In this document: in pieces, positions 61,520-62,617 of the stretch | How positions within the stretch are numbered: position 1 is the first letter of the stretch | Layout: every line of letters begins with the position of its first letter | NCBI GenBank assembly: GCA_010015805.1 | Contig: ML978126.1 | Coordinates: 744,001 to 808,000, forward strand | From: Rhizodiscina lignyota | Lineage: Eukaryota | Length of the DNA: 64,000 nt | Direction: 5' to 3' | The notes under the pieces: model-generated | What the model saw: the letters and a program-made list of their open reading frames with translations, nothing else | Database searches by the model: none | What the model was told of the DNA's origin: nothing | Made by a program: the position numbers and the translations under genes

Positions 61520-62617
61520 CTATTCCATCATTGCTTCGCGATTTTCGATGTACCAATCGACAAAAGCCTGGACGCCTTCACGCAGCGGCGTTCGCGGCTT
61601 GAAACCGGTGAGGGCGACGAGGAGATCGGAGCTAGCATGGGTCCGTGGTACATCACCTTGTTGCATTGGTAGCATGTTGCGGACTGCCCTCTGTCCCAGT
61701 GCATCCTCAACCATCTCTACAAAGCTCATCAGGTTGATGGGTTGACCACCACCGATGTTGACGATACGAAAAGGAGCCTGACGGGAGAGCGTGTCGAACC
61801 CGCCATTCACGATGCAGTCCTCCGCGCCCGGCGGTACGCCCACGAGGCGGACGATGCCTTCTATGAGGTCATCGATGTATGTAAAGTCGCGGCTCATTTT
61901 TCCTTCACCATAGATGTCGATCGCGCGTCCAGACAGCATGCTCTCGACGAATTTAAAGAGGGCCATGTCGGGACGGCCCCAGGGACCGTAGACGGTGAAG
62001 AAGCGGAACGACGTCGTGGGCACCCCGTACAAGTGCGCATAGCTGTGAGCCATCAGCTCCACTGATTTCTTCGTGGCTGCGTAGATGGTGAGCGGCTGGT
62101 CTGCGCAGTCCGTCTCGCGAAACGGCACGGATTCGTTGGCGCCATAGATGGATGATGTGGACGCGAGCAGCAGGTGCCGGACGTCGAGCTCTTTGGCAAT
62201 GTCGAGGACGTTCCACGACCCTTCGACGTTGGAGCTGAGGTAGGAACGAGGATTCTCAAGACTGAAGCGCACCCCCGCCTGCGCAGCCAAGTGCACAACG
62301 ATATCGGGTTTGGCCTCTCGCATCGCAGTCTCAAGTTTCTCGCGGTTTTCCAGCAGCGCGATGATTGATTGGAAACGTGGATATCCCGACAGTACGGCAT
62401 GTCGCATCTCCTTTAGTTTAACATTGTAGTAAGGTGTCATGCCATCGAAGCCTACAACATCGTGACCTTCCTCCAACAGGCGTCGCGCAAGATGGAATCC
62501 AATGAAACCAGCAGTGCCAGTAATGAAATATCGCAATTTTACTATTGATCTGTCTTGCTTGTTCTCGGATAACGAATCTCGACGACTGCGCGGCTGCGCC
62601 GATCCAGCTTCTTCCAT
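61520..62617 (-). CDS. NAD-dependent UDP-glucuronate epimerase (rhizobial LspL / bacterial Uge-like), intronless
   Basis: [63 protein letters not shown] and LPMQQGDV. Confidence 0.93.

Follow-up and report, generated by a model that had tools for sequence, protein, structure and literature searches.

How did a gene encoding a rhizobial-type UDP-glucuronate 4-epimerase come to lie in the chromosome of a dothideomycete, and what might it do there? The question was raised by the 64,000-nt window of Rhizodiscina lignyota DNA analysed here (the window is the whole stretch, numbered from its first letter), for which a first-pass annotation had proposed a gene acquired from Alphaproteobacteria. The frame at 61520-62617 on the minus strand (read from 62617 to 61520) consists of 365 uninterrupted codons with no intron needed, and was assigned by homology, trees and conserved residues to an LpsL-type UDP-glucuronate 4-epimerase of rhizobial origin (365 aa). 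The intronless frame, the TTG at 62536, the 27-aa extension from ATG 62617 and all four motifs quoted in that annotation were indeed found. The same 365-aa model is present in public protein collections as an annotation, not as a record of expression, and the gene is present in one copy: of 5 matches in the genome, the remaining 4 are only 26-32% identical.

The bacterial-derived core (61520-62536, minus strand, 338 codons plus stop) aligns codon for codon with Rhizobium proteins and reaches 72.8% identity to them. The TTG (Leu28, 62534-62536, minus strand) had been described as standing where a bacterial start Met would sit, and all 58 rhizobial loci examined carry ATG at this position. The in-frame ATG at 62617, with A at -3 and G at +4, lies 81 nt before the TTG and opens an extension of 27 codons (62537-62617, minus strand). 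No other ATG lies between the two, the nearest ATGs further upstream are at 116 and 122 nt, and the next in-frame Met is Met60, initiation at which would remove the NAD-binding motif. A conserved body combined with a lost ancestral start points to the use of ATG 62617, which probably took over as the start in its good context; initiation at the TTG as a near-cognate start codon is possible.

The extension, previously called low-complexity, is hydrophilic instead (GRAVY -1.55, 14 residue types, no hydrophobic segment), and its complexity of 3.56 bits lies within the range of 27-aa windows of the core (mean 3.68, minimum 3.31). It includes an Arg-Arg-Asp-Ser stretch (62573-62584, minus strand), possibly by chance, which we take to be a match to the protein kinase A consensus. 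The extension could not be aligned to donor DNA: similarity to Rhizobium at the DNA level, 70.8% at best over 61551-62543, is confined to the core, and nothing at the site matched a DNA profile built from rhizobial upstream regions. A relic of rkpK as the source of the extension and the new ATG was considered and rejected, because there were only short matches by eye (the best local score, z 3.5, came from a single one of 58 comparisons) and DNA and protein profiles from 20 rkpK 3' ends gave no match beside the fungal gene; the same profile recovered the host dehydrogenase (E 2e-11). The upstream intergenic DNA (62618-64000), host-like with 44% GC, is the presumed promoter. The gene is GC-rich relative to its flanks, as had been noticed (55.3% vs 45.4% and 44.4%), but host genes nearby reach the same level in their coding stretches (54.7%, 57.0% and 57.6%), so the excess is a contrast of coding with intergenic DNA, and GC content was rejected as a sign of foreign origin.

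As a test of its affinities, the protein was compared with 8000 scored candidates, of which the best 120 (119 non-self) were retained. These 119 are 67-73% identical to the fungal epimerase, and all 31 with an organism name belong to Rhizobiaceae/Rhizobiales; no fungal clade is found among the best 120. The likeness to Sinorhizobium LspL noted at first holds as far as the rhizobial LpsL type is concerned, but the named relatives are of the Rhizobium group and none of the 31 is Sinorhizobium. Within the genus Rhizobium, 166 of 173 genomes carry a match at E <= 1e-140. The ESM Atlas gave bacterial clusters only, among the matches listed, and none of the curated NCBIfam models matched at its cut-off.

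The NAD-binding TGxxGxxG motif is present near the N-terminus (T33-G40, invariant positions). The catalytic and carboxylate sites of this enzyme class are defined by residues of B. cereus UGAepi (PMC7984243 and PMC12338863, in the parts available), and Thr126/Ser127/Ser128/Tyr149/Lys153/Thr178/Arg185 of that enzyme correspond to Thr154/Ser155/Ser156/Tyr179/Lys183/Thr208/Arg215 of the fungal protein. The catalytic Thr/Tyr/Lys triad (T154, Y179, K183), the carboxylate network (T154, S155, S156, T208) and the Arg that binds the UDP-GalA carboxylate (R215, B. cereus Arg185) are all retained, and the Glu of decarboxylases is absent, Ser standing at the B. cereus 128 position. The best 19-aa hydropathy is only 1.05, with no hydrophobic anchor, so the protein should be cytosolic, unlike the plant members. 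Given that the gene's origin and place in the chromosome are established and that its frame and active site are intact, it is likely to encode a selected cytosolic enzyme that makes UDP-galacturonate for some glycan, both activity and use being predicted from sequence.

We propose that a single lpsL-type gene from Rhizobiaceae was inserted into a variable region of a dothideomycete chromosome and kept there under selection. Transcription would proceed from host DNA upstream of the gene, and translation from ATG 62617 would have freed the old ATG to become TTG. The soluble, NAD+-bound enzyme would oxidise C4 of UDP-glucuronate (Tyr179, Thr154, Lys183) in the cytosol, the resulting 4-keto sugar would turn with its carboxylate held by Thr154/Ser155/Ser156/Thr208 and then by Arg215, and its re-reduction would yield UDP-galacturonate. 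The substrate would come from the host's own UDP-glucose dehydrogenase, and some host glycosyltransferase might add galacturonate to a wall, secreted or small-molecule glycoconjugate, the weakest step of the scheme. The host indeed has one eukaryote-type UDP-glucose dehydrogenase with an open frame (best PDB chains E 4e-164 vs 3e-63 for the next group), which makes the substrate supply plausible. Neither a glycosyltransferase nor a transporter lies beside the epimerase gene at the locus, and a GT8 search gave four weak matches that are not informative.

The gene may also be selected for a different role, such as conversion of UDP-GalA to UDP-GlcA (feeding UDP-xylose synthase), buffering of the UDP-GlcA pool or action on a related nucleotide sugar, a reading that we regard as rather unlikely. 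It would fit with the presence in the host of a UXS-like gene, which we presume to be such from its motifs, and with no UDP-GalA consumer having been identified in the host. In addition, the reaction is reversible and specificity is not fully readable from sequence (PMC7984243, in the part available). Every UGAepi-specific residue is kept, however, and salvage requires a route from free GalA to UDP-GalA, against which the count of UDPGP-family genes argues: only two were found, the number expected for UGP and UAP alone (identity by count only). On another contig (C10:41100-45900), a GT2 glycosyltransferase, a UXS-like decarboxylase and an acyltransferase-3 adjoin one another and are a candidate cluster for an acylated glycan that contains xylose; the trio shows that the host uses UDP-GlcA-derived sugars, and nothing ties it to the epimerase.

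Whether the gene has been kept by selection was judged from the pattern of substitutions. Compared with the 119 relatives, the fungal epimerase has changes in 13 of the 170 invariant columns, the start among them, and in 41 of the 50 variable columns. None of the 94 deeply conserved columns (conservation of 95% or more across 52 diverse bacterial proteins) differs, vs 98 of 337 columns overall, and 12 of these 98 changes (12%) fall at rhizobial-invariant sites, compared with 3-15 of 88-102 (3-15%) in equally distant bacterial orthologues. In a two-ratio codon model (16 rows, 328 codons), which is stationary and in which dS is saturated, omega was 0.02 for the fungal branch and 0.06 for the background, and omega=1 on the fungal branch was rejected (2dlnL 77) for a branch that covers bacterial and fungal history together. 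Because this long terminal branch includes time in the unsampled donor, the constraint is not assignable to the fungus alone, and fungus-to-fungus dN/dS has no pair, as the best 120 matches include no close relative with the gene. The codon score toward the host is 0.03 for the fungal gene, vs -0.22 +/- 0.08 for the orthologues and 0.19 +/- 0.13 for the host (18 stretches); these values are suggestive of codon amelioration toward the host, though 2 of 58 bacterial orthologues score roughly alike (0.10 and 0.00).

The same data bear on the reading that the gene is a recent passenger from unsampled Rhizobiaceae, its constraint being bacterial and the fungal copy silent or not yet decayed. The failure to find a close fungal relative among the best 120 matches and the two orthologues with fungal-like codon scores agree with this reading, as does a substitution-only simulation in which the frame stayed stop-free after 0.1 changes per site in 9.7% of 2000 runs. 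We nevertheless consider a passenger unlikely, since the absence of change at the 94 deep columns leaves at most about nine random amino-acid changes (0.72^9 = 0.05), donor DNA is detectable nowhere outside the CDS, and the ancestral ATG is gone while an in-frame upstream ATG stands in good context. Retention under selection is the reading that we prefer.

In order to examine the integrity of the locus, we analysed the one sequencing run that contains the stretch, which is possibly the source of the assembly itself and hence not independent. The gene lies on a contig of 2.16 Mb in an assembly of 33.4 Mb (33 contigs), and contigs from the run span all 30 bins of the window with zero differing letters. 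One unitig, of 17.6 kb at 146.6x, runs as far as 61468; another, of 3948 nt at 151.3x, holds the whole epimerase gene from 61441 and extends beyond the window end; read depth is 151x for the epimerase vs 147x for the host. The only contig break at the locus, 50 nt from the epimerase stop codon, corresponds to a 32-nt two-copy node at 300x inside a dispersed host repeat of about 110 nt. This repeat (61390-61498, plus strand, 109 nt), degenerate and ending 21 nt from the stop codon, is flanked by a 5-bp duplication (61385-61389 and 61499-61503) and belongs to a short family with at least 8 genome copies of about 110-130 nt each, in which the duplications are exact in 3 of 8 copies (this one included) and match in 4 of 5 letters in 2 more. 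We read it as a solo LTR because of its TG...CA-like ends, its TATA-like core and the 5-bp flanking duplications. The LTR was also considered as the vehicle of transfer and rejected, as its own target duplication and its location on one side only indicate a separate insertion.

An assembly chimera or bacterial contamination, for which the break so near the stop codon and the dependence on a single run might speak, is very improbable. The depth equals that of the host, the break is accounted for by the node within the host repeat, and the matching duplication, present to either side of the break, speaks independently of the assembler for the unitigs having been joined correctly. Contamination in particular is unlikely: the run contigs total 34.2 Mb vs the 33.4-Mb assembly, leaving no room for a Rhizobium genome of 4-8 Mb, rhizobial manC gave no match with the query used, and the sole match for UDP-glucose dehydrogenase is eukaryote-type.

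For the position of the donor, a careful tree (29 rows) groups the fungal protein with Rhizobium, Peteryoungia and one other member of Rhizobiales in a clade of 11 rows (support 100/100), and this clade sits inside a Rhizobiaceae clade (100/98). In a quick tree (94 rows) the fungal epimerase is nested deeper among Rhizobiaceae, on starred branches, and in a DNA tree (16 rows) it is drawn toward the outgroup. As the placement differs among the three trees, the exact donor is not fixed, but the protein comparisons support a member of Rhizobiaceae that falls inside Rhizobium/Peteryoungia or is its sister. Of 114 loci, 28 did not fit the extraction pattern and were left out. Among distant family members, 18 of 150 representatives were checked by name and 0 were named as fungal, and the tree is thus without a fungal family member. 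That an old eukaryotic UDP-glucuronate epimerase was inherited vertically is hardly credible, even though plants, Sphaeroforma, chytrids and, sparsely, ascomycetes have members of the family (PMC8092308, in the part available), since the three named eukaryotic members are only 43-45% identical to the epimerase and an AU test rejected forced grouping with five eukaryote-type proteins, among them Datura, Closterium and Sphaeroforma (p-AU 5e-85, log-likelihood 114 lower; fungal family members are absent from the tree). Homology, trees, AU test, read depth and linkage thus agree in confirming the transfer from bacterium to fungus, as the first-pass annotation had proposed for Alphaproteobacteria; the closest matches include no fungal clade, and no chimera is seen in the assembly at this locus.

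The genes around the epimerase tie it to host DNA and raise a further question as to the locus. On the left are fungal-type genes, including a methyltransferase and an N-acetylglutamate synthase of ARG2 type (coding stretch 56652-58385, minus strand), which serves as the host anchor; its NAT domain was identified by Pfam, and the name ARG2 is presumed from the earlier reading. On the right are HET-domain genes and also genes that we take to be those for a beta-glucosidase, a cystathionine beta-synthase and SMC2. Both genes adjoining the epimerase are also intronless and bacterial-type. The MmgE/PrpD-family gene (59552-60964, plus strand) belongs to a patchy fungal clade of 24 rows (named members from Chaetothyriales, Zasmidium and Trichoderma), with betaproteobacteria as the next named relatives at 55-57% (unrooted), and is probably an older transfer. 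The GH18 gene (266 aa, minus strand, at 808108-808908 of the contig, shortly beyond the window) keeps its DxDxE motif intact, has no obvious signal peptide and matches plant-like structures of the class-IIIb/narbonin type; its only named relative, from Ktedonobacteraceae, is 58% identical and three others are at 83-91%, and a further transfer is possible. Bacterial origin is much less firm for these two genes than for the epimerase. Both have relatives at 83-91% (on short contigs) and the epimerase has none above 73% among the matches listed, which hints that the epimerase arrived last.

Co-transfer of the three genes from one bacterial locus was rejected, as a shared donor locus was not found: of 80 PrpD loci, none has an LpsL-like or GH18 gene (two SDR matches at 24-27% only), and of 80 epimerase loci, none has a PrpD or GH18 gene within the flanks covered. 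A metagenome scan for synteny of the fungal PrpD gene gave 80 loci, all at 51-57% and outside the close clade, and the stretch beyond the window that holds the GH18 gene contains no tRNA. Elsewhere, a second intronless NAD-dependent epimerase, bacterial-looking by eye, lies on the same contig (1983225-1984235, plus strand). The window also holds a frame at 9929-10627 (plus strand), which presumably resembles the C-terminus of a piggyBac-type transposase, and a 237-aa frame at 34221-34934 (minus strand) with a signal-peptide-like start and two tandem repeats of about 100 aa. A bolder and tentative reading is that the fungus may have acquired de novo UDP-galacturonate synthesis from a Rhizobium and might use it, through transferases of its own, for a GalA-containing polymer (pectin-like or anionic) that is secreted or part of the wall, and that the locus may be a repeated landing site at which three adjacent intronless bacterial-type genes (PrpD-like, epimerase and class-IIIb-like GH18) came from different donors.

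Activated galacturonic acid is a building block of plants and bacteria that is rarely predicted in fungi, and the gene described here should enable its synthesis. The pathway had been called non-standard for ascomycetes; it is rare, but not unheard of, since Schwerdt et al. 2021 predict UDP-GalA synthesis sparsely in ascomycetes, mainly in insect-pathogenic Hypocreales (PMC8092308, in the sections available). As far as its available sections go, this kingdom-wide survey raises transfer in general terms only and leaves the patchy ascomycete distribution unexplained, and its Table S1 lists Arabidopsis as the sole characterised GAE reference and no fungal UDP-glucuronate 4-epimerase. Fresh import from rhizobia is one route to such a distribution. 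The present gene may be a leaf in the tree of that survey (PMC8092308, seen in part); a protein of the Schwerdt type is absent among the named top matches, so that a separate origin is likely. We found no published description of this transfer in a literature search by listed records and abstract openings, and the terms 'horizontal', 'epimerase' and 'galacturon' are absent from the main text of PMC7082219. The gene is a clean and apparently lineage-restricted transfer of an intact UDP-glucuronate 4-epimerase from Rhizobiaceae to a fungus. As transfers of bacterial enzymes into fungi are otherwise common, its significance rests on the putative galacturonate glycan, and the epimerase offers a soluble, single-copy test of whether UDP-galacturonate is made and used by a fungus.

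Among known systems, the fungal GAE clade of Schwerdt et al. 2021 shares the predicted UDP-GalA synthesis, and the available sections of that paper hold no donor analysis (PMC8092308). The B. cereus UGAepi series is more distant than the rhizobial enzymes (E 3.9e-41 for PDB 6ZL6), as is PDB 5U4Q (E 2.5e-113), which carries the depositor label dTDP-glucose 4,6-dehydratase. Plant GAE is Golgi-anchored and supplies the pectin precursor. It has the reaction family and motifs in common with the fungal epimerase, but is only 43-44% identical to it and forms a separate clade, and the fungal protein is without the N-terminal transmembrane or hydrophobic anchor. Rhizobial LpsL, encoded with rkpK at the rkp-2 locus, converts GlcA to GalA for LPS (PMC8227245 and PMC7902896, in the parts available). 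The start of the R. altiplani orthologue lies 2 nt past the stop codon of a UDP-glucose dehydrogenase gene, the same position as that of R. favelukesii lpsL directly after rkpK (PMC7902896, in part), and 20 of 64 loci of bacterial relatives adjoin rkpK. The fungal copy differs in its fungal host, in the lack of rkpK alongside and of LPS, and in having TTG for ATG and the 27-aa extension; adjacency to rkpK is a feature of the locus that was lost on transfer and not of the protein. With rhizobial LpsL it shares 67-73% identity, the 338-codon length, the active site and its nesting in the clade.
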